Part shown: in pieces, positions 1 to 18,711 of the stretch
Numbering within the stretch: position 1 is the first letter of the stretch
How the letters are laid out: the number at the start of each line of letters is the position of its first letter
Virus record (IMG/VR): IMGVR_UViG_3300044612_001159
Location: 1 to 64,000 of that record
Length of the DNA stretch: 64,000 nt
Strand: one strand, 5' to 3'
From: a virus
The notes under the pieces: generated by a model
Database searches by the model: none
Told to the model about the DNA's origin: nothing
Seen by the model: only the letters and a program-made list of their open reading frames with translations
Made by a program: the position numbers and the translations under genes

Positions 1-744
1 TAACTCCTCAGCCCTATACTTATTTCCATTAGCATCAAGTTTCCAGCCTTGCTTTAGCAGTTCTTGCCACTCTGCTCTTTCAACCTCTTGATGTGCTCTG
101 GTCTGCTTCATTTCTTCAGCCCATGCGTCTCTGACCTCTTGCGGATATGCATCTTCTTCACGATCATCCCAAAATGAACCTATTGTATATCTAACTCCCT
201 TGGTTATAACTGTTACCTCGTGCATATTATTAAACCCACCGTCAAAAGCAGCAAGCATTCCTACTTTTGGCTTAATGCTAATATCTTGATCAGGGAACTG
301 TAAAAGTCCTCCCTCAAAATCATCATTCAAGTATAAAAATGCTGCATATCTACTTCTAGTAAAAGCCCCAGACTTTCCATGCTCATCTGTGTTATCTGAA
401 TGTTTTCTAGCATATGCTCCTGGCTCCCACTTTTGTGTATGATATCCAATTTGACAAATTACCTTTGGATCTAAATCATGTACGCTTGCAACAGCCTCTA
501 TTATTCCCTGCTTCATTTGTGAAAAAATATCAGAAGGCAAACCTTCAGAAATTACATGTTCATCATCATCTTGAGGAAGGACAGACGAATAAGATTCATA
601 GAATGATATTGGCATCCATGTAATTGTTCCAACTTCAACATGCTTGTCTAAAACTTTTACAAGTTTTTCTGCAACTTCTGGAGATATAAAGTTTTCATAA
701 ACAACTATATCTTTTGTTATCCTTGATTTGTTTTCTAGGTTCAT
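1..744 (-). CDS. 2OG-Fe(II) oxygenase (prolyl-4-hydroxylase-like), runs off window start
   Basis: Hand-translated (not in ORF track): ATG at 744 overlaps the upstream stop (ATGA); MNLENKSR...HSD...FLYLNDDFEGG...HEV...RY. Confidence 0.85.
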   Translation of the reverse strand, partial: MNLENKSRITKDIVVYENFISPEVAEKLVKVLDKHVEVGTITWMPISFYESYSSVLPQDDDEHVISEGLPSDIFSQMKQGIIEAVASVHDLDPKVICQIGYHTQKWEPGAYARKHSDNTDEHGKSGAFTRSRYAAFLYLNDDFEGGLLQFPDQDISIKPKVGMLAAFDGGFNNMHEVTVITKGVRYTIGSFWDDREEDAYPQEVRDAWAEEMKQTRAHQEVERAEWQELLKQGWKLDANGNKYRAEEL

Positions 745-1604
745 CTTACTCTAACTCCTTCTGGTATTTCAAACCTGTTTGGCAGCGTCTGCCAATATTC
801 CTGATTTATGTTATCCTGCATATCATACCATTCTTTTTTCCCAAACTCGGCCTCTTTTTTAAACCATTCTTCGCTTCCCAGACTATACTTTCTCCAATAC
901 ATTCTTGCAAAATATTTTTCATTTCCAGACGAAGGAAATACCCCATGTAGGTAAACACTGTCATTTTTTTTCAACACCTCTGGATGGCCCGAAGGAAATA
1001 CCAGCCAGTCTCCAGCCTCTGGCTTATACTTTATCAACTCTCCTCCTACATAAAAATCAATCTCTCCCCCGTCATAATCATCATTAAAGTAAGCATTTGC
1101 AGTAATTGCAAACTTATATCCTGGACTTGGAATTGGCTCTCTAATGAAATCAGAATGATATGTCATTGACATTTTGTCTAATATATCTTTATGATAACTA
1201 CATATTGATGGGCCATACATTTTCCATAAAGGAAATCTTTCTCCGTCCCTGTTTTCAACAATTTCTTTACTATCAAAATTAAAATCGTTACCATATCTAA
1301 GAATGTAATCTTGAGTTACTTTATCAAAGCCGCCTGCTAACTCTAAAAGAAAATATTTTTGATCCTCTTGATTCTTAGTTTCAGTCTTTATTTCTTTTAA
1401 ATTTTCATAACTCCACTCTTTGCCAAAAGTGTTTCCTGCTGGATAGTTTATGTATTTACCAAATTGTGCCCACTGTGACCATTCTCCAAATATTCTGTCC
1501 GTATTATCATTTGAAGATTCTTTTAAAATTTGATACATTTTTTCTACATTTTCAAAAATGTTTTTATAAACTAAAATGTTTGGATATATTTCTATAAAAT
1601 TCAT
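741..1604 (-). CDS. 2OG-Fe(II) oxygenase
   Basis: HSD, YFNDDYDGGEIDF, KP..GD...FPS, HGV motifs. Confidence 0.85.
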   Translation of the reverse strand: MNFIEIYPNILVYKNIFENVEKMYQILKESSNDNTDRIFGEWSQWAQFGKYINYPAGNTFGKEWSYENLKEIKTETKNQEDQKYFLLELAGGFDKVTQDYILRYGNDFNFDSKEIVENRDGERFPLWKMYGPSICSYHKDILDKMSMTYHSDFIREPIPSPGYKFAITANAYFNDDYDGGEIDFYVGGELIKYKPEAGDWLVFPSGHPEVLKKNDSVYLHGVFPSSGNEKYFARMYWRKYSLGSEEWFKKEAEFGKKEWYDMQDNINQEYWQTLPNRFEIPEGVRVR

Positions 1605-2362
1605 TAGTTATTCCTAATTCCATTATCTGGATCCCAGGCCCTTATTGACTCGTCATTAGGAAAAATTCTATGATAATCTTTAGTAAAGTCTGGTTTTATT
1701 TCTCCAGTATGCTCAAGAATCTCCCAAAAAAATGGACAGGTATACCTAATACCATTTTTAATTTTTGTTACCCCATGCACATAGTTCATGTCCCCTGGGA
1801 AAAAATATGCAGATCCACGCTTTGGCTTAAACTGTATTCCTTGATTTGGAAAATACAATTCTCCACCTTCATAGTCATCGTTAATATAAAATAAACTTGC
1901 TATGTCATAGTTTGGGAAATCGTTTGGTTTTCCAGCATCTGGTCCAGAGTGTAACTCTTTATCTGCATGCGGTAATTGATACTGTCCTGGATTCCACTTT
2001 ACAATTGTTTGTCCAGTTGGCCTAACTTTTACATTAAAAAATTCTTCAATAACTGGCTGTAGTTTGTTAAACAATCCTATAATTACTGGAACAATATTTG
2101 GATCATTTTGATTTAATGATGGAGCACTTGCTACTCGATCTTTCCAATAATCTGCATCATAAATAATTACTCCGTTTTCATTCTTATGGCTTTGTGTTAT
2201 ATCCCAAATTGTTATGCTTCTTGCTGCTTTATCTAAGAAATCGACCTCTTCCTGGGTCATAAAATTTTCTAGTTCAATGATGTTTTCTGGACCACTTCCA
2301 AAAAACCCAGAGGGTGTGCTGGAGGGCTTTCTTACTACTGTAACTGCATCTTGTGGATTCAT
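1604..2362 (-). CDS. 2OG-Fe(II) oxygenase
   Basis: HAD, YINDDYEGGELYF, HGV...RY; leaderless TATAAT-N6-ATG. Confidence 0.9.
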   Translation of the reverse strand: MNPQDAVTVVRKPSSTPSGFFGSGPENIIELENFMTQEEVDFLDKAARSITIWDITQSHKNENGVIIYDADYWKDRVASAPSLNQNDPNIVPVIIGLFNKLQPVIEEFFNVKVRPTGQTIVKWNPGQYQLPHADKELHSGPDAGKPNDFPNYDIASLFYINDDYEGGELYFPNQGIQFKPKRGSAYFFPGDMNYVHGVTKIKNGIRYTCPFFWEILEHTGEIKPDFTKDYHRIFPNDESIRAWDPDNGIRNN

Positions 2363-2390
2363 GTTTGAATTATATCATAGGACTTTTATC

Positions 2391-2846
2391 CTACAATTTT
2401 CCCTCTACTTCTAATTTTTTCAAAAACCTTTCAACATTAAACCTCCAGTTATCTTTTCCAAATGATGTAGCAATTTTTAAGCAAAGGTCTTCGTAGTCTT
2501 TTTTGTCTAACTTATCCTTTATTTGATAAAGGGCATCCGTGGTATCAATGTAGTTTTGTCTTACAAAAGATGGATCTCCAGCATGATTTCTTTTTAATAC
2601 TTTTGTTGTTACTTTTCCGCAGGGCTCATACAAAGAAACAGTTAGATAGTCTTTTGCAAAACCTGCATCCTGATACATTCTATAGCCATCTACAGCATCT
2701 TCTATATTTTGAAAAGATATAATAGATCTTACTGGGTCTTCTCCATCTCTTGCCACTGTAATCATATAGTGACCAATTTTCCTGTCTTTGGCATCCTGCA
2801 AATATTTATTTATTATGTCAGAGTGTGATGGATTTAATTCATTCAT
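2391..2846 (-). CDS. two-domain hypothetical protein (fusion of homologues of the 30939 and 28569 ORFs)
   Basis: By-eye alignment with two small ORFs in this window. Confidence 0.7.
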   Translation of the reverse strand: MNELNPSHSDIINKYLQDAKDRKIGHYMITVARDGEDPVRSIISFQNIEDAVDGYRMYQDAGFAKDYLTVSLYEPCGKVTTKVLKRNHAGDPSFVRQNYIDTTDALYQIKDKLDKKDYEDLCLKIATSFGKDNWRFNVERFLKKLEVEGKL

Positions 2847-3560
2847 TTATTTAGTGCTCCTATTATCTTTTACATTTAGCCTAAGAGTTTTTACTTCATG
2901 AGACCCGAGCGAATTTCCGTTTTCATCTACGGCATCTCGATACCAATCAGTCCACCCACCAGTAGAATTAATTTTTTGTGCAGCCTCTCCATAAGAAATG
3001 TTGGCATTCATTCTTGACTTATCTTCATCTTTATATTCAAAAACCTCTATCGTGCTATTATTTAAATTTGTTAATGATATAGGAATAATTGTTGCCAACG
3101 GAGTGCCAGATTTTATAACTATATTTTGATTAGCCTTCTTTGCTTTAATTGCTAAAGGCAATGGATTGTCATAGAATGAAGTTGTAATTAAGTTTGACAT
3201 AGTTTCAAAATCTTCATTAAAATAGTTAACTGGATTTATAGTAAAAATGCTAACATCAGAATCTGTTCTAAATATAAGTCCAGTATTTAAACTGATTGAA
3301 GACTGCCCTCTGCCTGCATAAGATCCTTGTGGACTAGAGATTATATTTATGTGTTTATCGGTTTGGTCATTTATTCCGTCCCAAATAAACTCAATATCTT
3401 CTTCACAAAAAATATTCCAGCCTATTACATTTGCCTGAGTAACAGGAAAACACCTATATGCATGCTTTTCTGATGTAACATCCATCCAATCTCTTTTTAT
3501 TGACATTGGGGATATTGAAAATGGTGCCCCATGCATTTTTTCGACTGAAATATTAAACAT
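2847..3560 (-). CDS. DUF6065-like protein
   Basis: RDWMD...HAYRCFPVTQAN..GW signature. Confidence 0.6.
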   Translation of the reverse strand: MFNISVEKMHGAPFSISPMSIKRDWMDVTSEKHAYRCFPVTQANVIGWNIFCEEDIEFIWDGINDQTDKHINIISSPQGSYAGRGQSSISLNTGLIFRTDSDVSIFTINPVNYFNEDFETMSNLITTSFYDNPLPLAIKAKKANQNIVIKSGTPLATIIPISLTNLNNSTIEVFEYKDEDKSRMNANISYGEAAQKINSTGGWTDWYRDAVDENGNSLGSHEVKTLRLNVKDNRSTK

Positions 3561-4246
3561 TATTCGTTATCCCATTTTGGGTCATACATATCTGGTGTAT
3601 GATACTTTTTACTGTAATCAAGCATTGTTACAATAGAATACTTTGTTCCAGAATGAACTGGCATTGCTTGATGTGGATACATAAAGTTAGAAGGAAATAT
3701 ATACAGATCTCCAGCCTTTGGCTTAATGTTTAGGCCCTGAAGTCTAAAGTATAACTCCCCACCATCATAATCATCATTTACATATGCAACCAAAGAAACC
3801 GTGCAATTATATGAGTATCCGTGATCGTGATGTTCTTTAAAGTGTTGTCCTGGACCATACTTAATAAAGTTAAAAGCCTCCCAATATTTAAGAGGCATTA
3901 TATTATAGTCTCTACGATAATCTTCTACTGCTGCTGACTGGGCGTCATAAACATCTTGCCAAAGTGCTTGAAGTTTTAATGAATCCTCGCTCTTGTCTGC
4001 CTCTATATCTGTTTTCTTAAACTTAAAATCAACACAATCTCTATAATCTGGCATTAATTGCTGATATCCAACATATGCAGGCATCCAGTGATATCTTTTT
4101 CCTTCTGCAGACAATTCTCCATATCCAGCAACAGATCCTAGTATATTTTCAAGTCTATTAATAACATCAATTTCTTTTTTTATAACATTTCTATAGCATG
4201 TAATACCATTGCCAAGCACTTCTTTTTCTGTCCAAGTTTGCATCAT
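3560..4246 (-). CDS. 2OG-Fe(II) oxygenase
   Basis: HHD, YVNDDYDGGELYF, FPSNFMYPH; start trimmed to MMQTW. Confidence 0.9.
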   Translation of the reverse strand: MMQTWTEKEVLGNGITCYRNVIKKEIDVINRLENILGSVAGYGELSAEGKRYHWMPAYVGYQQLMPDYRDCVDFKFKKTDIEADKSEDSLKLQALWQDVYDAQSAAVEDYRRDYNIMPLKYWEAFNFIKYGPGQHFKEHHDHGYSYNCTVSLVAYVNDDYDGGELYFRLQGLNIKPKAGDLYIFPSNFMYPHQAMPVHSGTKYSIVTMLDYSKKYHTPDMYDPKWDNE

Positions 4247-4251
4247 TTCTC

Positions 4252-5019
4252 CTATTTGTATTCTCTTCTTGACCAAACACTTTTTATATATACCCCGCCA
4301 TCTGGCTGGCGATAGGTTTTTGCATTATCCATTATTTTACCATAGATCTTGGAAGAATCGCTTATCTCTATTTCATGGTCCCAGTTATCTCTTTTAAAAG
4401 GAAGAATTTGCAGATACGGAGTCCCTGCTGGGATAGTTCCTTCCCATCCTTCTACAATAAAAAATGGAAAACTTCCAAGCAGGTGGACTTTGTCACTATC
4501 TACAATTCCAGTTGTATTTAGAAATGGTAAATCAAATCTATTCATTGGAGTCATAAACAAAGCACTATATCCTTCTGGTAACTCCAACCCCCAGTCAGCA
4601 GACCAGGCAAAATGGTTAGAATAATACCCCTTTGGATGCTCAAACTGTGGCATTGGTGGTCTTTGTGTACAAAAATCTTGACACTTTGGATCCTCTACTT
4701 TAACACTTATAATTCCTTGAGCATTTTTAAAAAATGTTAAATCACATGGAGTTCTAAAAACATATCCCGTTGCAAAAGCATCCATAATTGCTGGACATGC
4801 TTTCCATGTTGGAACCTTGCCAAAGTCGTCTGTTGTTCCTTCTTTTGGAAAGGGACAAACCTCTTTTGGCGCCTTATAATATTCACCATTAGGCATTTTA
4901 GCAAACCTGTCTGCATCCTTGTACCAATCTGGCATTTCTTTTTGTGTTGGGACTGGAACAGACTTGCTTTCTTTGTTTAGCCAAGGTCTGTAAGAAACAA
5001 ATTTGGCAATAAGCGACAC
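4252..5019 (-). CDS. DUF6065-related protein (TWKxCP..D..GY family)
   Basis: TWKACPAIMDAFATGY, GIVDSD, IPAGTP..Q..PFKR. Confidence 0.55.
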   Translation of the reverse strand: MSLIAKFVSYRPWLNKESKSVPVPTQKEMPDWYKDADRFAKMPNGEYYKAPKEVCPFPKEGTTDDFGKVPTWKACPAIMDAFATGYVFRTPCDLTFFKNAQGIISVKVEDPKCQDFCTQRPPMPQFEHPKGYYSNHFAWSADWGLELPEGYSALFMTPMNRFDLPFLNTTGIVDSDKVHLLGSFPFFIVEGWEGTIPAGTPYLQILPFKRDNWDHEIEISDSSKIYGKIMDNAKTYRQPDGGVYIKSVWSRREYK

Positions 5020-5735
5020 TACTTATGTCCTAGTTCATTAATGTCTGTCATAACGACAACGCAATATTTTGCTCCCGATTTCATTGGTAAAGATGCATGT
5101 TCGTATATGTAATTAGATGGACAAAGAAGAATATCTCCAACCTTTGGTGTATGTGTATATCCATCAAGTCTTGGGAACTTAATCTCTCCGCCTTCGTAGT
5201 CTTCATTTATGTATATTACCGCAGAAACCGTACAATTATACATTGGACCATGGTCTGCATGAATATTGAAGTGCTTTCCTTCACCCTCATACTTTACAAA
5301 ATTAAATGCCTCATAATATATAACGTGAATTCCCCAATATTTTGCATAATCATCAACACATATTTTTAGTTTTTGATATATTTCTTCATGAAGGTCAAGA
5401 AGTTCAGCATTATGTTCATCTCTTGGCCCCAAGTTTTCTTGCTTATATTTAAAGTCTACACAGTCTCTTGCTTTTTTGATTGGCACATCTGAATTTGTAA
5501 CCTTTGCGTCTGACCAGGTATATTTTCCATTACCGCCTAAGTTTGACTCAAGCATATTTATATATCTTTCCGAATCTTCTTTTGAAAATGTATTCCTGTA
5601 TAAATTTATTCCTAGTGCTGGATTTTCAACTATAAAGCCATTGCTCATAGTTCTTGTTGGATATCTATTTAATGCTGTTTCTGATCTATCTTTTGTAAAC
5701 CATGGATTTTGATTTTCATCATAAACTTCGTACAT
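5019..5735 (-). CDS. 2OG-Fe(II) oxygenase, paralogue of 3560-4246
   Basis: HAD, RDCVDFK, EAFNF.KY, YNCTVS shared with the paralogue. Confidence 0.9.
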   Translation of the reverse strand: MYEVYDENQNPWFTKDRSETALNRYPTRTMSNGFIVENPALGINLYRNTFSKEDSERYINMLESNLGGNGKYTWSDAKVTNSDVPIKKARDCVDFKYKQENLGPRDEHNAELLDLHEEIYQKLKICVDDYAKYWGIHVIYYEAFNFVKYEGEGKHFNIHADHGPMYNCTVSAVIYINEDYEGGEIKFPRLDGYTHTPKVGDILLCPSNYIYEHASLPMKSGAKYCVVVMTDINELGHK

Positions 5736-5822
5736 ATTAGTACCACTTTCTTTTCAATAAGCCTAGATAAAAGTATACCACACCATTTCTGATGTGGTAT
5801 ATCTTTTATTTATTATTTTATA

Positions 5823-6779
5823 TTATGTCGCTCTTGGACCGAACTTGTTTCCACCGAATGATGGGAAGAATGGGAAGAACGGTGGGAAGAATGGTGGGAA
5901 GAATGGGAAGAATGGGAAGAACGGTGGGAAGAATGGGAAGAATGGGAAGAATGGGAAGAACGGTGGGAAGAATGGGAAGAATGGGAAGAACGGTGGGAAG
6001 AATGGGAAGAATGGGAAGAATGGGAAGAACGGTGGGAAGAATGGGAAGAATGGGAAGAACGGTGGGAAGAATGGGAAGAATGGGAAGAATGGGAAGAACG
6101 GTGGGAAGAATGGGAAGAATGGTGGGAAGAATGGGGGGAAGAATGGGAAAAACGGTGGGAAAAATGGCGGGAAGAACGGAGCAATAGTAGTTACGCTACC
6201 AGAAGACGCAGATGCAGCAGAATTTCCATTAGCGTTAGTTGCATAAACAGTATATGTTTGAGAAGTATTTGCTTCTTGAGAAACTACCACTGATGTTGAA
6301 GCAGTTGAATTAGTTTTTCCATCTGAAGATGTCCATGTATATCCAGTAATCGCCTTACCACCATTTGCTGGGGCGGTCCAAGAAACCGTATCTTGATCTA
6401 CTCCCGCTGTTGCAGTTGGAGCACTTGGTGTTGCTGGAACAGTTGTTGCTGTCACAGAAGACGATGCTGATGAAGCAGCAGAAGTTCCTGCGGCATTTGT
6501 TGCAGTCATTGTAAAGGTATAGGAAGTATTAGATGCTAAACCTGTTACTCTAACTGGAGATGATGCGCCAGTTCCAGTAAATCCTCCAGGGGAAGATGTA
6601 ACTGTAAAAGATGTTGCTGCTGGAGAAAGCGCAGGTAATGTAAAAGATACATCAACTGCTCCATCATTAAATGCACGACCTGTTCCTACATCTGTCGCAC
6701 CAGTAATAGTTGGTGTTAATGGCTCCAAAAAGTCATTTGATGCTTGGGACTTTCTACCTGTCTTCTTGCCTGCTGCCAT
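5823..6779 (-). CDS. fibronectin type III domain protein with about 105-aa C-terminal Pro/Phe repeat; probable virion accessory protein
   Basis: Two FN3 repeats (VTGL...TSYTFT..ATNAAG; VSWTAP..GG..ITGY) followed by (PFFP/PPFF)n. Confidence 0.8.
   Translation of the reverse strand: MAAGKKTGRKSQASNDFLEPLTPTITGATDVGTGRAFNDGAVDVSFTLPALSPAATSFTVTSSPGGFTGTGASSPVRVTGLASNTSYTFTMTATNAAGTSAASSASSSVTATTVPATPSAPTATAGVDQDTVSWTAPANGGKAITGYTWTSSDGKTNSTASTSVVVSQEANTSQTYTVYATNANGNSAASASSGSVTTIAPFFPPFFPPFFPFFPPFFPPFFPFFPPFFPFFPFFPFFPPFFPFFPFFPPFFPFFPFFPFFPPFFPFFPFFPPFFPFFPFFPFFPPFFPFFPFFPPFFPPFFPFFPSFGGNKFGPRAT
5857..6180. repeat. coding tandem repeat of 9-nt AATGGGAAG and 12-nt AACGGTGGGAAG units encoding PFF/PPFF
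   Basis: Directly visible. Confidence 0.95.
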
Positions 6780-6809
6780 TTTATCTCCTAGTTTCTATTA
6801 AATTTTGTA

Positions 6810-8585
6810 CTACGCTGTTAGATCGCCGTAAACGACCCAAGTGTTTGCTGCTCTCTTTAGGAGGGTAGCAGAAGACCATCTTGTTCTTAATTTCAAACCA
6901 GGTGTTGCGTTTACTGTAACTGAACCAGAAACTGGAGCAATTGTAACCTGTCCTGTGTTTGTTTGTAGAATATCAATAGTTGTTCCTACTGGATAGTTTA
7001 CTGTTGAATCCAATGGAATTGTGAGAGTTGTTGCTGATGTAGAATCTACCTCAATCAACGAGTCTCTATGTGTTAATTGTGAAAGAGCATATGATGCTGT
7101 CTTTTGTACAATTGGAGTTCTTGATGGAACGCCTTCCTTTGTTTGTGTACCGTCTGAGAACACAACACCTGCAGATGGAGTTACTGTAGTTGCTTCAAGA
7201 GCGCCTACTGCAAGTGCATCAAGAGATCCTTCTCCAAATGCTACAACTGTTGAAGGCTCTGTTGCTACATCCTTAAATAACTTCCACTTAGCATCAGATA
7301 CGTCTCTTACGAGGCCTGAGTGCTTTGCTGTACCGTCGTTGTAAGCAACTACTAGACCAAGGTCGACTGTGTTTGCTGCATTCTGGTGAGCAAGTTGAAC
7401 CATGTTATCTTCAATTGTGATAGATGTTGCTGATGCTGAGAAGTTGGTTCCGTTAACTGTAAAGTCTCCGTCTACTACAAGGTTTCCGTCAACTTCTACG
7501 CTACCTGTAAATACTGCGCCTGCAAGAGAAGCCTTTGCATCAAGTGCTGTTTGTGTAGCAGTTGATACTGGCTTATTTGCATCTGAAGTATTATCAACAT
7601 TTGCGAGGCCTACTGAAGACTTTGTAAGTGCTGCTACTGCTGTTGCTATCTTTGTATCTGCTGCTGCTCCTGCTGCTGTTATTGCGTCTGCTTCTGCATT
7701 ATCCGCATATTCTTTAGTTGCAAGAAGTGCTGTATCAGCAATACCGTGTACGTTAGTTGTATCGTCGTTGTGTGTACTTACTGCATCGTCTGCATAAGTC
7801 TTTGTAGCAATTGTGTTATCAATATCAAATCTTTCGTCTACTGCGTTCCAGTCAATACCAGTTCCTGCAAGTGCTTGCTGATCTACGGTTGCTGCAGTAA
7901 TTGCATTTGCTATGTCTGTTTGTGTTGCAAGAACAGAAGTATCAAGAATTCCGTGAACATTTTCTGTTAGATTTTCGTGTGCTGTTAATGCTCCAGCAGC
8001 ATTGTTTGCTGCTGTCTGAACATCAGTTTGTGTAGCAAGAACGGATGTGTCAGCAATTCCATGAACCAGAGTTGTATCTGAAGCGTGTGTAGACAATGCT
8101 GAAGCAGCATCATCTGCTGCACCCTGTACGTCTGTAAGTGTTGCAAGAACAGAAGTATCTGCAATTCCATGAACCAGAGTTGTATCTGAAGCATGTGTAG
8201 ATAGTGCTGAAGCAGCATCGCTTGCTGCTGCATTAACATCTGACTTCAGTGCAAGGGCTGCTGTATCTGCAATTCCATGAATCATTGTTGAGTCATTTAT
8301 GTGATTTGTAAGATTTTGTCCAACTGTTGCAAAAAATTGTGGATCGCCATTAATTGCGCCTGCTAGTTCATTTAGGGTATTAAGAAGATCTGGAGCACCG
8401 TCAACAATTGCTGCGAGTTCGGCTGCATTGGCAAAGTACTGTAGTGCAGACCAGGCTGAGGAGCCGTTACCCATTTTAAATTTATTTGTATCAGTTTCAA
8501 AACCGATTTCACCTGCTGCGAGAACTGGGTTAGCAGCCGTCCATTGTGCTGCAGTTCCTCTGCGCTGTTGCATTCTTGTTGCCAT
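6810..8585 (-). CDS. tail fibre-like protein with Mtd N-terminal-type domain
   Basis: RRGTAAQW...NPVLAAGEIGFETDT.KFK.G.G; repeated H..DTT.VHGIADT; APDLLNTLNELA.A. Confidence 0.75.
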   Translation of the reverse strand: MATRMQQRRGTAAQWTAANPVLAAGEIGFETDTNKFKMGNGSSAWSALQYFANAAELAAIVDGAPDLLNTLNELAGAINGDPQFFATVGQNLTNHINDSTMIHGIADTAALALKSDVNAAASDAASALSTHASDTTLVHGIADTSVLATLTDVQGAADDAASALSTHASDTTLVHGIADTSVLATQTDVQTAANNAAGALTAHENLTENVHGILDTSVLATQTDIANAITAATVDQQALAGTGIDWNAVDERFDIDNTIATKTYADDAVSTHNDDTTNVHGIADTALLATKEYADNAEADAITAAGAAADTKIATAVAALTKSSVGLANVDNTSDANKPVSTATQTALDAKASLAGAVFTGSVEVDGNLVVDGDFTVNGTNFSASATSITIEDNMVQLAHQNAANTVDLGLVVAYNDGTAKHSGLVRDVSDAKWKLFKDVATEPSTVVAFGEGSLDALAVGALEATTVTPSAGVVFSDGTQTKEGVPSRTPIVQKTASYALSQLTHRDSLIEVDSTSATTLTIPLDSTVNYPVGTTIDILQTNTGQVTIAPVSGSVTVNATPGLKLRTRWSSATLLKRAANTWVVYGDLTA

Positions 8586-8640
8586 TTATCTCTCCTTATG
8601 GGTTCTGCCCATGAACTTATCTTATTATAACATCAATTTT

Positions 8641-9096
8641 TTAATTGAAATTATCTACTACACTACCGCCATCAAACACGACTGTCCACTCTGTTGTATC
8701 TGGTCCACCTGCGTCTATTCCTATTCCAAGCGGGCTGTTAAAAGATCCACCTTCATAGAATTGAGACACGATAAATCCAGTTCCATCAATTGCGGTATCG
8801 TGAATGTGCTGCGGAAGATTATTTGTATCATCAATAGTTGCTTGGGTATACCAAGTACCATTGTAATAGAAGTTAACTCGATTTGTTAGAGTATCTAACC
8901 ACTGAGTTCCATTAGTTGGGGATGAAGGAGCAGTTGAGCCTACAGCCATAGATCCTGTTAGGGAGTCTACATACTCCTTGGTTGCTGCATGTGAAGCAAG
9001 AGTTGGTGCCCCTACTGTTACTGCGCCTCCGAATGTACCGCCGTTAGTTACGGCTAATCCATTCTTTACCTTGAAGTCTTTATCGACTGTTGCCAT
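8641..9096 (-). CDS. virion/fibre-associated protein
   Basis: MATVDKDFKVKNGL N-terminus shared with the 9129 gene; HAATKEYVD fibre motif. Confidence 0.6.
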   Translation of the reverse strand: MATVDKDFKVKNGLAVTNGGTFGGAVTVGAPTLASHAATKEYVDSLTGSMAVGSTAPSSPTNGTQWLDTLTNRVNFYYNGTWYTQATIDDTNNLPQHIHDTAIDGTGFIVSQFYEGGSFNSPLGIGIDAGGPDTTEWTVVFDGGSVVDNFN

Positions 9097-9128
9097 TTAC
9101 TGCTCCTTCTTCCAACTATTTATTTTTT

Positions 9129-10748
9129 TTACTTCAAAAGAGTTCCGATAACAGCAACTGTTGAGTTGTTGTTAAGGGTTGCGACACGAAGACGAACATC
9201 GTTGCCAGAAACATCTGCTGAAACTGATCCAAGATCACCGTTTGTTCCAACCATTGCGTATTCTGTGATTGCGATATTATCTGATGTGTCAAGTGTCAAG
9301 ATAACTTTTGAAACCTCTGTATGAGATCCGTTAGCAATCTTAACAAGGAATTCGGCAGAACGATAGTTTGCCTTGGCCCATGAAACTGCTGTGTTTGTGC
9401 TTGCAGTAGGAACAGATGCTTCTGCTGCTACCTGCTTTGCTACAGAGGCAATCTCTACTGCAGGGAAATCTGGAGTTACTGCTTCAAGAGCAGAAACTGC
9501 ACGAGCATCTGTGAAGTAAAGGTTTGTTCCTTCTACAAGGTCAGTTGTTGTAGAATCTGCAACACCGTTTTCTGCGGTAATTGTAAGATTGTTTGATCCG
9601 TCCTTTGTGATTACAATGTTTGTCTTTGTTGCATTTGCAAGAAGCGTTGCTGCTTCTGCCTTTGCACGAGCATCAGTGTAATAAAGGTTTGAACCTTCTG
9701 CTACATCGTCTGTATCAAGTGCTGCAATAGTTCCATTTATTGTTGAAGCAAGTCCATCTGCATATGTCTTAGCATCTGCTTCTGCTGTGTCAGCGTATGA
9801 CTGATAAGCAGTTGTAATTGCTGTCTCACGAGTATCTGTATATGCTTTTGCGTCAACTTCAGCCTGATCTGCATATGCATTAGCATCTGCCTCTGCTGCA
9901 TCAACATATTGCTTTGTTGCTGCACCAAGGTTTGCTGATGGATCTGCTGAAAGGACAAGAAGTCCAGTCATTGTATCGCCAGCCTTAGAAACCTTTTCTC
10001 CTACTGAAGTAGCGAGGTTTGCTGCAAAGTTGGCGTCATCGCCAATTGCTGCAGCCAATTCGTTGAGTGTATCAAGAAGTGCTGGTGCAGAATCTACAAG
10101 ATCTGCAACCTTTTGATCAGCATAAGCCTTTGCGTCTGATTCTGCTGTATCTGCATATGATTGATATGCTGTTGTAATAGCAGTCTCACGAGTATCTGTG
10201 TAAGCCTTTGCATCTGCTTCTGCAGTATCTGCATAAGACTTAAGAGAAGCATCAAGTGAAGAAATTTCTCCATCTGTGTAATCATTTGCATCTTCAAGTG
10301 CTGCGTTAGCCTTTGAAGTAGCATCTGCTGCTGCGTCTGCAATTGCTTCTCCCTTAGCGGTAGCAACTTCTGCATCTGTTGCAAATGAACCATTTAGGGT
10401 TGTAGAAATTTGTACATTTTGTGTACCATTAAAATTAACTTGACCAGTTACATCACCAGTAAGTTCAATTGTGCGAGAAGCCTCAAGCGCTGTTGCTGTA
10501 TCTGCATTACCAGTTACATCACCAACGAGGTCTGCTGTTACTACTCCCGCTGCAAAGTTGCCAGAAGCATCACGCTTTACAACCTTGTTTGCTTCGTTTT
10601 CTGAGGTGGCTGTTCCACCAATTAAATTGACGATATAGTTTTGATCGTCTGTCTTCTTTGTAAGAACGTCAAAATTGTTTACTGTTGCTGTTGTGCCTTC
10701 GACAATGAGACCATTCTTTACTTTAAAGTCTTTTGTTACTGTTGCCAT
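9129..10748 (-). CDS. tail fibre shaft-like coiled-coil protein
   Basis: A.AYAD repeats, APALLDTLNELAAA, TDD..EG.NLY.T.AR repeats. Confidence 0.7.
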   Translation of the reverse strand: MATVTKDFKVKNGLIVEGTTATVNNFDVLTKKTDDQNYIVNLIGGTATSENEANKVVKRDASGNFAAGVVTADLVGDVTGNADTATALEASRTIELTGDVTGQVNFNGTQNVQISTTLNGSFATDAEVATAKGEAIADAAADATSKANAALEDANDYTDGEISSLDASLKSYADTAEADAKAYTDTRETAITTAYQSYADTAESDAKAYADQKVADLVDSAPALLDTLNELAAAIGDDANFAANLATSVGEKVSKAGDTMTGLLVLSADPSANLGAATKQYVDAAEADANAYADQAEVDAKAYTDTRETAITTAYQSYADTAEADAKTYADGLASTINGTIAALDTDDVAEGSNLYYTDARAKAEAATLLANATKTNIVITKDGSNNLTITAENGVADSTTTDLVEGTNLYFTDARAVSALEAVTPDFPAVEIASVAKQVAAEASVPTASTNTAVSWAKANYRSAEFLVKIANGSHTEVSKVILTLDTSDNIAITEYAMVGTNGDLGSVSADVSGNDVRLRVATLNNNSTVAVIGTLLK

Positions 10749-10764
10749 TTTTTTATCTCCTTAG

Positions 10765-11211
10765 TTATGCCTTAAGTCCAATTCGTGCATAACGAACTGT
10801 GACTGGCTTAATCGCAGGATCTGGAGTAACCGTTAAGGATACTGTATTTCCAGCCCTGGAGACGCTAATGGTGCCAATATTCCCATCATTGTCTATCGTG
10901 CCATACTCAGAGACGTTTACATTTGTACCGTCTACAAGTATGGTCAACTCTGTTGCGTAGAATTTATTGTCCCCTGCTGTTGTCTTAGCAATAGAAACAA
11001 TATATTTAATCATTCGCCATTCTGTGGCGTCAAAATTATCAATTACTGTGGCATTTTCAATACCAGAAATTGTATTTTCATTATTACCCATTGAACCAAG
11101 GTCGGTTGAACGGGCTGAGGCAGAATCAATTAAGTCCTCATAGTCTTGCTGCGTGGGGCGATCCCCAGTCTCAAACTTTGTCTTTAGATTAGGTATTGAT
11201 ATCTTGGCCAT
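10765..11211 (-). CDS. virion structural protein
   Basis: LK..FETGDRPTQQDY.DLIDS; C-terminus resembles that of the 9129 protein. Confidence 0.55.
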   Translation of the reverse strand: MAKISIPNLKTKFETGDRPTQQDYEDLIDSASARSTDLGSMGNNENTISGIENATVIDNFDATEWRMIKYIVSIAKTTAGDNKFYATELTILVDGTNVNVSEYGTIDNDGNIGTISVSRAGNTVSLTVTPDPAIKPVTVRYARIGLKA

Positions 11212-14072: not shown

Positions 14073-15089
14073 TTATATCTTAGTCTTTATCCAATTATAT
14101 GTTTTTGTAATACCATCTTTTAATGATATAGAATAGTCCCATTGAAGTTTTTCTCTGACTAGATCGTTATTTGAGTTTCTGCCACGAACACCAGTTGGAC
14201 CATCTACATGCTTTTTACTTAAAGTCTTGCTCTCAACTGATGAGGCAATGTCAACAAGATCATTTATAGTTACCATTTCTTCGGATCCAATATTGACTGG
14301 ACCAGTAAAATCAGACTTCATTAGTCTTCTTGTTGCCTCTATGCATTCGTCTATATACAGAAATGAACGAGTTTGCTCTCCATCCCCCCAAATTTCTATA
14401 GAGTCTGTTCCAATAATAACTTTTCTACAAATTGCTGCAGGAGCCTTTTCTCTACCGCCGTTCCATGTTCCTTCTGGGCCATAGATATTATGATATCTTG
14501 CAACTGCAACTGGAATATTGTAGTTTTTGTTAAATGCTAAGAACAGTCTCTCGCTAAATAATTTTTCCCATCCGTACTCGCTGTCAGGATTTGCTGGGTA
14601 TGCATCTGATTCTTTAAGTCCAGGATTATCTGTAGACTCTTGAATATGGGAGGGATACATGCATGCAGAACTACTGTAAAAAATTTTTGTTTTGTTTACA
14701 TTATTTTTTTGATTTAATCTTAGTTGTGCTCTTAATAAGTTAAGATTAATCAATGCAGAATTTTCCATTATGTTTGCATCATTTTCACCTGTAAAAATAT
14801 ATCCTGCTCCGCCCATATCTGCAGCAAACTGATATATCTCATCAAAAGTATCTATAAACTTTGGTGCCAAGTCTACATAAAAATTTCCCTGATATCCTTT
14901 AAATTGAATTACTTTTTCCATATTAGAATATTCAGAAAGATCTCTAATTATAAACTCATCTGCTTTTGTTTCAGAAAATTCTGGATTTTTTATATCAACT
15001 CCACGAACCCAGTATCCTTCCGACTTAAGTCTTTTGACCATGTGGGATCCTATAAACCCCCCTGCACCAAAAACTAAAGCAGTCTTCAT
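14073..15089 (-). CDS. NAD-dependent epimerase, GDP-mannose 3,5-epimerase-like
   Basis: GAGGFIG, AADMGGAGYI, YSSSACMYP, YGWEK, REKAPAAICRK, GVRGRNS. Confidence 0.85.
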   Translation of the reverse strand: MKTALVFGAGGFIGSHMVKRLKSEGYWVRGVDIKNPEFSETKADEFIIRDLSEYSNMEKVIQFKGYQGNFYVDLAPKFIDTFDEIYQFAADMGGAGYIFTGENDANIMENSALINLNLLRAQLRLNQKNNVNKTKIFYSSSACMYPSHIQESTDNPGLKESDAYPANPDSEYGWEKLFSERLFLAFNKNYNIPVAVARYHNIYGPEGTWNGGREKAPAAICRKVIIGTDSIEIWGDGEQTRSFLYIDECIEATRRLMKSDFTGPVNIGSEEMVTINDLVDIASSVESKTLSKKHVDGPTGVRGRNSNNDLVREKLQWDYSISLKDGITKTYNWIKTKI

Positions 15090-15700
15090 TATCTTAGCCA
15101 ACTCACAACAGAATACCTTGTTCCTTCTTGTACTGGAAGAACGGAGTGATTATATACATAAGTTGATGGGAAAATAACCATTTGGTTTGCCTTTGGTTTT
15201 AGAGTAACATTAAATCTTGGGAAAAACAGTTCTCCTCCAGAGTAATTGTCATTTATGTAATAAAGGGTAGATATTCTTCTATGATATTCTGGATGATCGT
15301 CTATATGATTAACAAATTTTTGACCAACTCCGTATTTTAAAATACCATAAACATCATGCCATGTTGTAAATATTCCATAATTGTTTTTATAATCATTTTC
15401 TAATGGACCAAAACTTTCTAAAAAAATATTAGACAAACTATTTTGAAATGCATCTATTAGATTTGTATGATCATTTACTATGGTATCAGAATAACGAATT
15501 CCAATCTTCATTGTATCTCTTTTGGTTTGATCTGTTTGTTCCACATCACCATTTTCTTTTCTTCCAGAATAAACACCTGCCAAACTCCATTGAATATTTG
15601 CAGACTTCATTCCTTCCTCTATATCATCAACTAGCGTTTCTGAGTCTTTTATAACATTATCATAAATCATAATTCCTGGAGCAATTTCATTTTTTATCAT
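15089..15700 (-). CDS. 2OG-Fe(II) oxygenase (P4H-like)
   Basis: HID, YINDNYSGGEL.F, FPS.Y.Y.H, RYS.V.W. Confidence 0.9.
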   Translation of the reverse strand: MIKNEIAPGIMIYDNVIKDSETLVDDIEEGMKSANIQWSLAGVYSGRKENGDVEQTDQTKRDTMKIGIRYSDTIVNDHTNLIDAFQNSLSNIFLESFGPLENDYKNNYGIFTTWHDVYGILKYGVGQKFVNHIDDHPEYHRRISTLYYINDNYSGGELFFPRFNVTLKPKANQMVIFPSTYVYNHSVLPVQEGTRYSVVSWLR

Positions 15701-16194: not shown

Positions 16195-18711
16195 TTAGTA
16201 AGCGCAACTAGATCCAGTCCAGAATCCACCACTATTTACACAGGATGTACAGTTACTGCATGCCACCGATGTTGCTGTATATTCTGGGCAGGCAGCACAT
16301 TGATTTGCTGGTGTCGGAGTTGGGCTAGGTGTAGGCGTTGGAGTTGGGGTAGGCGTTGGCGTTGGGGTTGGAGTTGGAGTTGGGGTAGGAGTTGGAGTTG
16401 GGGTAGGAGTAGGTGTTGGGGTTGGTGATGGCGTTGGTGTAAAAGTTGGGAAGAACGGGAAGGACGGTGGGAAGAACGGGAAGGACGGGAAGAATGGTGG
16501 TGCAGGTGTAGGTGTCGGAGTTGTCCATGGTGTTGTCGAGCATTCTCCAAATGTTGTTGAATAATAATATCCGCAAGCCTGGCATTGAGACTGGTTATAG
16601 GCCCATGCATTGTCTGGGCTACATGTTGGTGTCGGAGTCGGTGTCGGAGTTGGTGTCGGAGTTGGTGTTGGTGTTGGTGTTGGTGTTGGTGTTGGTGTTG
16701 GGGTACAAGGAACACTCTGGAAGTATTCTCCACAACTTCCATTTGCATAAACACCAATTCTACTTCCATTAGAACATGGAGAATCCCAAGCAATAAATGT
16801 TCCAGAAGGTGGGCACGTTGAAGTTGGAGTAGGTGTTGGAGTTGGTGTAGGGGTAGGTGTAGGGGTAGGTGTTGGAGTTGGTGTTGTCCATGGTATTGTT
16901 GAACATTCACCAAATGTTGTTGAGTAGTAATATCCGCAAGCCTGGCATTGAGACTGGTTATATAAATATGCATTGTCTGGTACGCAACTAGAGGTTGGTG
17001 TTGGGGTAGGTGTTGGGGTAGGTGTTGAGCATCCAAGGCCTATATAAAACTTAATAGAACTTGTTGATCCATCAGAACACTTATACCATGCTTCTTGATA
17101 ATTACTACATCCTGAGCAAGATCCATCTGGACAGGATCCACTATAAACTCCACCTAGAGTTTGTCCATATTGAGATCCACAGGAAACTGTTGTAGTTGGA
17201 GTAGGAGTTGTTGGGGTTGGTGTTGGTGTTGGAGTTGTCGGTGTTGGAGTTGGGGTAGATCCACAATTTGCTGCCGATACTGAAGGCGTGTTTGAATTTC
17301 CTGGAGCACAGTTCCAACCACTTCCAACCTCACCTAAAGCGGTGTGGTACTGTAGTGCTTGTGAGCAAGTTCTTGTGTCGTCAAAATTAGGTCCCATAAC
17401 TGTTCCTGGATCATATCCTGCTCCAACATTAGCACAATATGTATACCAAACTCCAGAAGTTCCTGGAGTAACACATGGAGTTGTTCCAGCACCGCCACTA
17501 CCTCCACAAGAACTTACGTTAGTTGCAAGACAGTTTCCAAATCCAAGGAATGTTCCAGTCCCTGGTGCTGCTTCAACACAAACTTGGTATGAGCCATCGG
17601 AGCATGTTTTTCTTGTTCCTTGGAAAATTCCTTCATAAGAGTCCTCACCATTACATGTTGGAATTGTTACTGTATATGCTTCACATGGTCCACAGGTGAC
17701 TGTTTCTGTTGGTGTAGGAGTTGTTGGGGTTGGAGTTGGTGTTGTTGGGGTTGGAGTAGGAGTTGTTGGGGTTGGTGTTGTTGGGGTTGGAGTAGGAGTT
17801 GTTGGGGTTGGAGTAGGCGTTGGGGTTGGAGTAGGCGTTGGGGTTGGTGTTGGTGTTGGTGTTGGAGTTGGAGTAGGCGTTGGTGTTGGTGTTGGAGTTG
17901 GAGTTGGAGTTGTAGGCGTTGCCACACCTTCATAGATATCTCCGTATAAAACCCACGAGTCGGTATCTACTTTTATTAATGTTGCTTTGCCGTATTCTGC
18001 ATCAATCCATTTTTGATTATTTTTACTATTTACCATTACTCCGCTTGCTGGGCTAAATAATGTTCTTCCATAATTAAACTGTATAAAATTATATTGATAT
18101 CCTATAGGAATTTGTACAGAGGTATTGTTTGGAACAGTTACAGTCACTGTTACTGGTGGATTTGGGTCACCAGGAATTGGAGATATAACTGGTCCTGAAT
18201 ATGAAAGCAATATAGTTTTTGCAACATCACCAAGTTCTAATGTAAAATTATTATCTTTTGTTATTACTGTATTTATATTTGCAATTCTTGGCTCAAGATC
18301 AAACTGTTCATCAACAGAATTCCAATCAATACCATTTCCTGCAAGGGCTGGGTATCCTCCAGTAGCACCACTTATTGCATTAGTTATTGCTGTATTAACA
18401 AATGATTGCGTTGCTAAATCTGCTGTATTTGATATACCGTGGACATCTGTGGTATCTGAGTTGTGTGCTGAAATTGCTGCATTTCTATTTACTATTTCTG
18501 CAGCATCTGCATCTACAAGATTTTGAAGGTGTTTTGCAATTGACGGGGTAACAAGATTATTGGGGTTTGTATTTGCCCCATCATAAACATATGATCCATA
18601 GTGATATAGTCTTAAGGCTGCCTGAATGTCGGCTGCGTCTGAAAGACCTGGAATTTTAGTATTGAAGAGTCCACTACCGTTGACGGTATTATCGATATTC
18701 TCTTCTGCCAC
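16195..18711 (-). CDS. 838-aa fibre-like protein with Cys-rich modules separated by (PT)n linkers
   Basis: N-terminal third shares motifs with the 6810 fibre; several PT tracts; duplicated [21 protein letters not shown] module; short PFFP tract. Confidence 0.8.

Follow-up and report, generated by a model that had tools for sequence, protein, structure and literature searches.

We analysed a window of 64,000 nucleotides that forms the first 64 kb of the 115,665-bp IMG/VR record IMGVR_UViG_3300044612_001159, rated as complete by CheckV. The source was an uncultured lake phage of siphovirus type. On the minus strand (-), a gene encoding a fibre protein with fibronectin type III (FN3) domains and a long Pro/Phe polymer (the FN3-PF gene) was followed by an array of genes for 2-oxoglutarate (2OG)/Fe(II) oxygenases resembling prolyl 4-hydroxylases (P4H) and for DUF6065-like proteins. 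A Pro-rich repeat and an array of this kind were always found together in related phages. The array may hydroxylate Pro-rich proteins of the virion fibres, chiefly the Pro/Phe tract. This was the single most likely specific mechanism, yet, at a probability of about 0.38, it is more likely to be wrong than right.

Tandem arrays of 2OG/Fe(II) oxygenase genes belong to the most frequent "auxiliary" genes in phages from aquatic habitats. Proposed roles of these phage enzymes include a link to 2OG levels, DNA repair and the production of secondary metabolites (PMC3037559, PMC2938197). Here an array is tied across roughly one hundred diverged relatives to one unusually simple candidate substrate, and its role thereby becomes testable at the bench. 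The features of the block are as follows, with positions counted in the window unless marked as record positions.

5823-6779 (-): FN3-PF gene, 318 aa, with a conserved N-terminus, two FN3/Ig-like domains, the Pro/Phe polymer and a 12-aa end (translation; Pfam fn3, 6.5e-9)
5862-6179 (-): Pro/Phe tract, residues 201-306 (translation; DNA tandem repeat)
5774-5801 (-): hairpin resembling an intrinsic terminator, 12 pairs and a T-run, 21 nt past the FN3-PF stop
5019-5735 (-): ox2, P4H-like 2OG/Fe(II) oxygenase, HADHG...H...K subtype (PF13640, 7e-9; TAGTG overlap)
4252-5019 (-): duf3, DUF6065-like, predicted dUTPase/dCTP-deaminase fold, invariant Cys (phrog_7084, 5e-33; no Pfam match)
3560-4276 (-): ox4, P4H-like oxygenase, HHDHG...H...K subtype (PF13640, 1.3e-15; PDB 3itq, a P4H, 3.7e-5)
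2847-3560 (-): duf5, DUF6065, paralogue of duf3 without the DxD motif (PF19541, 1.3e-27; alignment A1)
2391-2846 (-): ORF of 151 aa, present only in some relatives (no Pfam or PHROG match)
1604-2362 (-): ox7, P4H-like oxygenase, HAD...H...R, the paralogue kept most widely among relatives (Pfam; alignment)
741-1604 (-): ox8, divergent P4H-like oxygenase, HSD...H...K (phrog_61, 2.5e-7; alignment; missed by Pfam)
1-744 (-): ox9, P4H-like oxygenase, last codons cut by the record start (Pfam)
record 114866-115528 and record 114240-114857: two further oxygenases of the array, at the other record end
record 113487-114224: third DUF6065-like gene (PF19541, 23.4 bits, under the cut-off)
6810-8585 (-): 591-aa tail-fibre protein directly upstream of the FN3-PF gene (many tail-fibre PHROG matches)

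Association of repeat type and oxygenase array

The comparison comprised 92 non-redundant related loci with enough flanking sequence. The Pro content of the repeat was measured for each locus, and downstream oxygenase and DUF genes were counted with iterated profiles within 6-8 kb. Where the Pro fraction of the repeat was at least 0.30, P4H-like genes were found downstream in 56 of 56 loci, and where it was 0.24 or lower, a P4H-like array was found in 0 of 36. All 56 diverged Pro-rich cassettes kept the array, although the number of oxygenases varied from 3 to 9. Over whole records, PF13640 matches numbered 6-12 in the Pro-rich phages versus 1-5 in the Pro-poor phages. The sequence-only reading, made from the letters of the window, had proposed that the repeat and the block be followed across related phages; in the 92 loci they went together without exception, so that a stronger association would not be possible. 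In a tree built from the FN3 part, both traits had about seven changes each, and four of four well-supported independent contrasts were concordant (sign test, p = 0.125, too few contrasts for significance).

One related locus, L138 in our numbering (IMG/VR contig 3300042366_000756), was considered as a case of a Pro-rich repeat without an array and was rejected. Of its two FN3-PF genes, one stands at a different site of the fibre region, and the other, in the canonical position, is the one that the array follows.

In Pro-poor loci such as L019 and L097, the fibre gene was followed within 9-45 nt by an orthologue of the third DUF6065-like gene and then by the gene for ribonucleotide reductase (RNR). 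The RNR of both loci was 95% identical to that of the window phage, yet both were without a Pro-rich repeat and an array, whereas the RNR of the Pro-rich, array-bearing L138 was only 84% identical. The array and the 3' part of the fibre gene therefore form a cassette, lying between the FN3 domains and the DUF-RNR anchors, that moves between backbones. The DUF6065-like gene found 7-45 nt behind Pro-poor fibre genes was considered as a fibre partner, and this was rejected because it is the orthologue of the RNR-associated third copy.

The FN3-PF gene closes a run of tail-fibre genes on the minus strand (9129-10748 and 6810-8585). A block of five oxygenases and two DUF6065-like genes had been described behind it; these are present in the window, but the block runs on over the record end, where a further two oxygenases and the third DUF6065-like gene are added. 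The whole block comprises seven oxygenases, three DUF6065-like genes and one ORF without a family; the array takes up about 9 kb from the fibre gene to the pair of DUF6065 and class II RNR genes. The record boundary (window 1 / 115665) falls inside the last codons of the oxygenase gene at 1-744 and splits the array over both ends; either the genome is circularly permuted, or the record begins at an arbitrary point. Beyond the array lie the third DUF6065-like gene, a class II (B12) RNR, a 1238-aa protein, the portal and a prohead protease. Stop and start codons overlap by one base in TAGTG at 5019 (ox2/duf3) and in TAATG at 3560 (ox4/duf5), and the likely start of ox4 is the ATG at 4246, 5 nt past the duf3 stop. 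The ORF at 2391-2846 had been labelled a fusion, and nothing was seen that would make it one.

Stalk protein, oxygenases and DUF6065-like proteins

Residues 201-306 of the FN3-PF protein consist, without interruption, of 62 Phe and 44 Pro, with 19 PFF and 12 PPFF units; about 105 residues had been estimated earlier, and translation gave 106. The protein then ends with the 12 residues SFGGNKFGPRAT before the stop. Two FN3 domains had been claimed. In Pfam one FN3 domain (residues 40-106) passed the cut-off and another stretch, Ig-like (residues 142-190), did not; relatives had two FN3 matches. In the DNA, units of 9 and 12 nt, TTCTTCCCA(CCG), are repeated in tandem over the tract, which is open in all six frames; the frame was therefore argued from relatives. 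A protein search gave about 2000 homologues with an aromatic repeat after the FN3 domains in the same frame, and 171 loci came from scanning viral contigs. The N-terminal 200 residues were 45-95% identical in nearly all homologues, and the repeat types were PFFP, PYFP, PPGFFAPP, PFCPSFCP, FGFTP, FSVFGFSP, YSFVP and NFYNFY.

Three kinds of end were found after the repeat: a short tail (the window protein and those of L001, L010, L028 and L046), a Cys-rich knot of 20-45 residues, and a domain of about 160 residues that starts with Cys or Ser and often finishes with HN. The profile of the 160-residue domains matched the bacterial intein-like (BIL) domain PDB 2lwy at 3.5e-8 and mini-inteins at 1e-7 to 1e-4, which identifies it as a Hint domain, expected to cleave itself from the repeat. 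It is absent from the window protein, whose translation stops 12 aa after the tract. Variants of the Hint domain had Ser for Cys at position 1, and HD, FD or VIA ends in place of HN (L014, L050, L093, L103-L105, L125, L136 and L152); distinct subtypes cap different repeat types. The Cys-rich ends, with 6-9 Cys in 20-45 residues (for example CSGC.RSYCWQACP.CCG.CGC), stood in place of the Hint domain in L002-L007, L022, L025, L033, L052 and L071. They resemble small disulfide knots and may form the distal tips.

An assembly artefact, or a tandem DNA repeat whose frame of translation is arbitrary, was rejected as an explanation of the tract and has practically no chance of being right: six frames are open across the repeat, but about 2000 homologues keep the frame with FN3 domains before and Hint or Cys-rich modules after it, the unit lengths are 9 and 12 nt, and the same tract occurs on independent contigs from many samples. 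A mere DNA repeat is excluded because conserved in-frame domains flank repeats of varying length. The Pro/Phe polymer is genuinely translated. The protein belongs to a very large family of lake-phage proteins in which a conserved N-terminus precedes 2-4 FN3 domains, a low-complexity aromatic stalk and an exchangeable end, and it represents the Pro-rich version without a cap. A polymer of 106 Pro and Phe residues on a virion protein is an unusual protein material regardless of what the enzymes do. A literature search found nothing on the PF stalk or on a family combining FN3 domains, an aromatic stalk and a Hint or Cys-knot cap, and a search for BIL domains in phage tail fibres gave nothing relevant among the top results. 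In records of cultured phages, no match was found for window positions 1-9000 (megablast), the FN3-PF protein or the 2847-3560 protein (tblastn).

PF13640 was above the curated cut-off for four of the five oxygenases of the block in the window, with 12 matches in the whole record. The fifth, at 741-1604, was missed by Pfam, carried an HSD...H...K motif, could be aligned with the other oxygenases and matched phrog_61. In alignment A4 of 14 genomic paralogues, the first His of HxD...H was invariant, and the Asp and the second His were nearly invariant. The basic residue for the 2OG C5 carboxylate was Lys in ox2, ox4, ox8 and the 114240-114857 protein and Arg in most others; ox2 and ox4 had the signature HxDHG..YNCTVS in common, together with the Lys. 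The closest solved relatives were the Bacillus anthracis prolyl 4-hydroxylase, the collagen lysyl hydroxylase LH3 and PHD2. The seven array oxygenases were 17-40% identical to ox2. Judged by these motifs, the array consists of seven different P4H-like 2OG/Fe(II) hydroxylases that appear catalytically intact. The earlier assignment to P4H-type enzymes agrees with the Pfam matches, the HxD...H and Lys/Arg motifs and the B. anthracis P4H as nearest solved relative.

Pro-poor cassettes of the FG type held 1-4 tandem paralogues of another family in the same slot (26 of the 36 Pro-poor versus 2 of the 56 Pro-rich loci). These proteins have 200-235 aa and the pattern GWFN..HDH..HGYY..AEPS..SETGHPH..RITIAYD, and their genes lie directly behind the FG-type repeat genes (L017:7374-9283, L032:8032-10027, L160:3795-5086 and L014:14658-16845). 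An AlphaFold2 (AF2) model (pLDDT 90) had the double-stranded beta-helix of the oxygenase type, and the nearest structures were the uncharacterised PDB 3bvc and 2rg4, the peptide hydroxylase ThoJ, PHD2 and bacterial P4H. The family matched gp47 of cyanophage Syn9 at 2.4e-9, and nothing was found for it in Pfam, in the sequences of solved structures, or by hhalign against the P4H-like alignment.

The 2847-3560 protein matched PF19541 with 97 bits (cut-off 26.6). The 4252-5019 protein was without a Pfam match but could be aligned with it and had phrog_7084 in common, and the alignment contained an invariant Cys, C75. In the duf3 subfamily, GI(I/V)D(S/T)D and GTP..Q were motif-like remnants that by eye resembled dUTPase motifs I, III and IV; the Gly-rich motif V was not visible by eye in this subfamily, and DxD was lost in the duf5 subfamily. 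Structure prediction and a fold search, which the sequence-only reading had suggested, gave only dUTPases as the top fold matches of the AF2 model, and the DUF6065-like proteins are accordingly modelled as dUTPase/dCTP-deaminase jelly rolls. No match to the canonical dUTPase family PF00692 was found in the genome, and neither the DUF6065-like protein nor its profile had a match among the sequences of solved structures. The profile matched Syn9 gp43 at 1.4e-20, and the proteins are homologues of that cyanophage protein. Against cultured phages (tblastn), the 4252-5019 protein matched only haloarchaeal myoviruses, at 26-31% identity. The name "DUF6065" was not found in a literature search. These proteins had been suggested as partner enzymes; a partner role is plausible because two of the genes are translationally coupled to one oxygenase subtype.

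The third DUF6065-like gene abuts the class II B12-dependent RNR (record 111359-114224; L172:11359-14224). In the haloarchaeal myoviruses HF1, HF2 and HRTV-8, a DUF6065-like gene lies two genes from the RNR, at the end of the tail module.

Possible targets of the array

If the array hydroxylates Pro-rich fibre proteins of the virion, the PF stalk would be the principal candidate. The chemistry would be hydroxylation of Pro and possibly beta-hydroxylation of Phe, and it would turn an extremely hydrophobic stalk into a soluble or adhesive one. Small amounts of the enzymes would arise when transcription passes the terminator that follows the fibre gene, and the dUTPase-fold proteins coupled to the HxDHG-type oxygenases would serve these as partners and not as nucleotide enzymes. 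The sequence-only reading had named the PF polymer as the oxygenase substrate. The enzyme type and the co-occurrence favour this, and the terminator, the shared anchors, the dUTPase fold of the DUF6065-like proteins and the absence of such a tract from Syn9 disfavour it.

Several observations weigh against hydroxylation of the stalk, in addition to two that come from Syn9 and the chlorovirus PBCV-1 and are given with those systems below. A strong terminator-like hairpin (5774-5801) lies between the fibre gene and the array, and about 24 Pro-rich relatives have a hairpin there too, with an identical or a different stem; the fibre gene is thus normally the last of its transcription unit. Seven further P4H-like paralogues lie outside the array, six of them among small early-type genes. 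Read directly, the tract is without Gly and without any known P4H target motif. Ten Pro-poor cassettes were without any oxygenase, and aromatic stalks can therefore work unmodified. Homologous exchange moves repeat and array together, so the contrasts on the tree are not independent trials, and co-inheritance of the two needs no functional link. The fibre region sets host range, and co-adaptation to a host clade predicts the same pattern. The association thus fails to separate an enzyme-substrate relation from linkage or host co-adaptation.

Contigs from RNA libraries (four lake metatranscriptome runs from four studies) bridged the hairpin over 5672-5890, which allows read-through as a weak hint only. 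Contig depth cannot rank genes and related phages are pooled, so only the bridging of the hairpin was used; with this limit, the summed depth over the fibre genes (5600-11200) exceeded the depth over most of the array (1-5200) by a factor of up to about 1000 in the four metatranscriptomes. Strong late expression of the fibre genes is suggested. The hairpin of the window and those of L001, L010, L012, L028, L035, L046, L080 and L085 had the shared core ACCACA ... loop ... TGTGGTAT in a spacer that otherwise differed. The hairpin may be more than a terminator.

A wider form of the hydroxylation mechanism can be put forward only tentatively. Stalks would be tailored by oxygenases matched to the cassette, P4H-like enzymes for Pro/Phe and the second oxygenase-fold family for Phe/Gly. 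The product would be an adhesive, hydroxylated and perhaps glycosylated or cross-linked appendage, whose end, in Hint-capped relatives, would be released or ligated by autoprocessing. If so, the stalks would become the first known natural substrate of the abundant 2OG oxygenase arrays of aquatic phages.

It is possible, though doubtful, that stalk and array are neighbours by position only. The array would then be an accessory island between the fibre and the RNR/packaging modules that acts on host proteins or 2OG pools, and the co-variation would come from one recombination cassette or from adaptation to the same host clade. Translation factors or ribosomal proteins could be among these host proteins, as they are targets of bacterial PHD and OGFOD-type enzymes. 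The FN3 and DUF-RNR anchors that bound the cassette, the 95% identity of the RNR across cassette types, the terminator between gene and array, and the additional paralogues among early-type genes are consistent with this explanation, as are cyanomyoviruses with numerous such oxygenases and without PF tails (PMC3037559). It does not account well for the loss of the array in 0 of 56 diverged Pro-rich cassettes with 3-9 oxygenases, for a second oxygenase-fold family that tracks a second repeat type, or for the position of such arrays after fibre genes in two groups of phages that are unrelated.

As Iyer et al. proposed for Syn9 (PMC2938197), the array might tailor a small peptide or a secondary metabolite, which is unlikely here. 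The block has several non-identical dioxygenases in tandem and partial homology to the Syn9 array (gp43 match at 1.4e-20), but its enzymes are closest to protein hydroxylases, and no peptide synthetase, halogenase, precursor peptide or exporter was found in it with Pfam and PHROGs. A layout like that of ribosomally synthesised and post-translationally modified peptides (RiPPs) had also been proposed and is not upheld. The "precursor" is a 318-aa FN3 structural protein, a terminator lies between it and the enzymes, and neither a protease, RiPP recognition element-type or transporter family nor a short leader-core precursor was found in the block with Pfam and PHROGs.

It is similarly improbable that the oxygenases act on other Pro-rich virion proteins and not on the PF tract. 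Four Pro-rich ORFs are present in the genome, and the three besides FN3-PF are as follows.

16195-18711: (PT)n protein of 838 aa
19817-20536 (-): collagen-like protein of 239 aa with a genuine Gly-X-Y stretch
record 64387-65994: PxP-rich protein of 535 aa

The PT-rich gene is adjoined by a P4H-like gene (15089-15700), and collagen-like Gly-X-Pro is the classical P4H target. However, as far as examined, the array tracks the FN3 repeat type rather than the other Pro-rich proteins.

An action of the oxygenase and dUTPase-fold pairs on nucleotides or DNA is very unlikely. The dUTPase/dCTP-deaminase fold with the motif-like GI(I/V)D(S/T)D and GTP..Q would suit it, as would the third copy abutting the class II RNR, the haloarchaeal virus homologues near an RNR, the absence of a canonical dUTPase from the genome and a weak Tet_JBP match, under the cut-off, in one oxygenase. 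On the other hand, PF13640 members of known substrate are protein hydroxylases, the proteins have no dUTPase match at the sequence level and have lost DxD in the duf5 subfamily, and the Syn9 homologue lies among halogenases and dioxygenases and not among nucleotide genes.

Comparison with known systems

Plant extensins, collagen and mussel foot proteins have Pro-rich repeats that are made fibrous or adhesive by hydroxylation of the P4H type. Their repeats are hydrophilic (Ser-Pro, Gly-X-Pro or Tyr/Lys-rich), unlike the pure Pro/Phe tract, and to our knowledge a pure Pro/Phe polymer is not among the known P4H substrates. The BIL domain of Clostridium thermocellum (PDB 2lwy) resembles the end domains of many homologues but has no counterpart in the window protein.

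The chlorovirus PBCV-1 encodes a prolyl 4-hydroxylase (Eriksson et al. 1999, as cited in PMC7019647). According to PMC7019647, virus-encoded Pro-rich repeat proteins were proposed as its substrates, which is the likeness to the present case, and hydroxyproline was not detected in PBCV-1 virions. PBCV-1 differs in being a eukaryotic virus with one enzyme versus an array of seven, and without an aromatic polymer.

The closest parallel is the tandem dioxygenase array gp41-gp54 of Syn9 described by Iyer, Abhiman, de Souza and Aravind (Nucleic Acids Res 2010, PMC2938197). Both arrays contain several non-identical 2OG/Fe(II) dioxygenases in tandem and a dUTPase-fold protein with a conserved Cys, and both lie directly behind tail-fibre genes, in two unrelated phage groups. 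Alignment A4 used as a hidden Markov model matched no Syn9 protein; this alignment is very gappy, and the result carries no conclusion. The Syn9 array includes tryptophan halogenases, whereas no halogenase or JmjC-type member was found among the block proteins of the window with Pfam and PHROGs. Three dUTPase-fold copies are present here, two of them coupled to one oxygenase subtype, unlike in Syn9. A Pro/Phe polymer protein lies upstream here, whereas the fibre-region proteins of Syn9 are without a Pro- or Phe-rich tract. The sequence-only reading had named conservation of the block in phages without any Pro-rich repeat as evidence against its proposal, and Syn9 comes close to such a case. 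Syn9 is a cyanophage, and the window comes from a siphovirus-type lake phage. Given the homology of the DUF6065-like proteins to gp43, the block is a variant of the published Syn9-type array, without halogenases and in another kind of phage.

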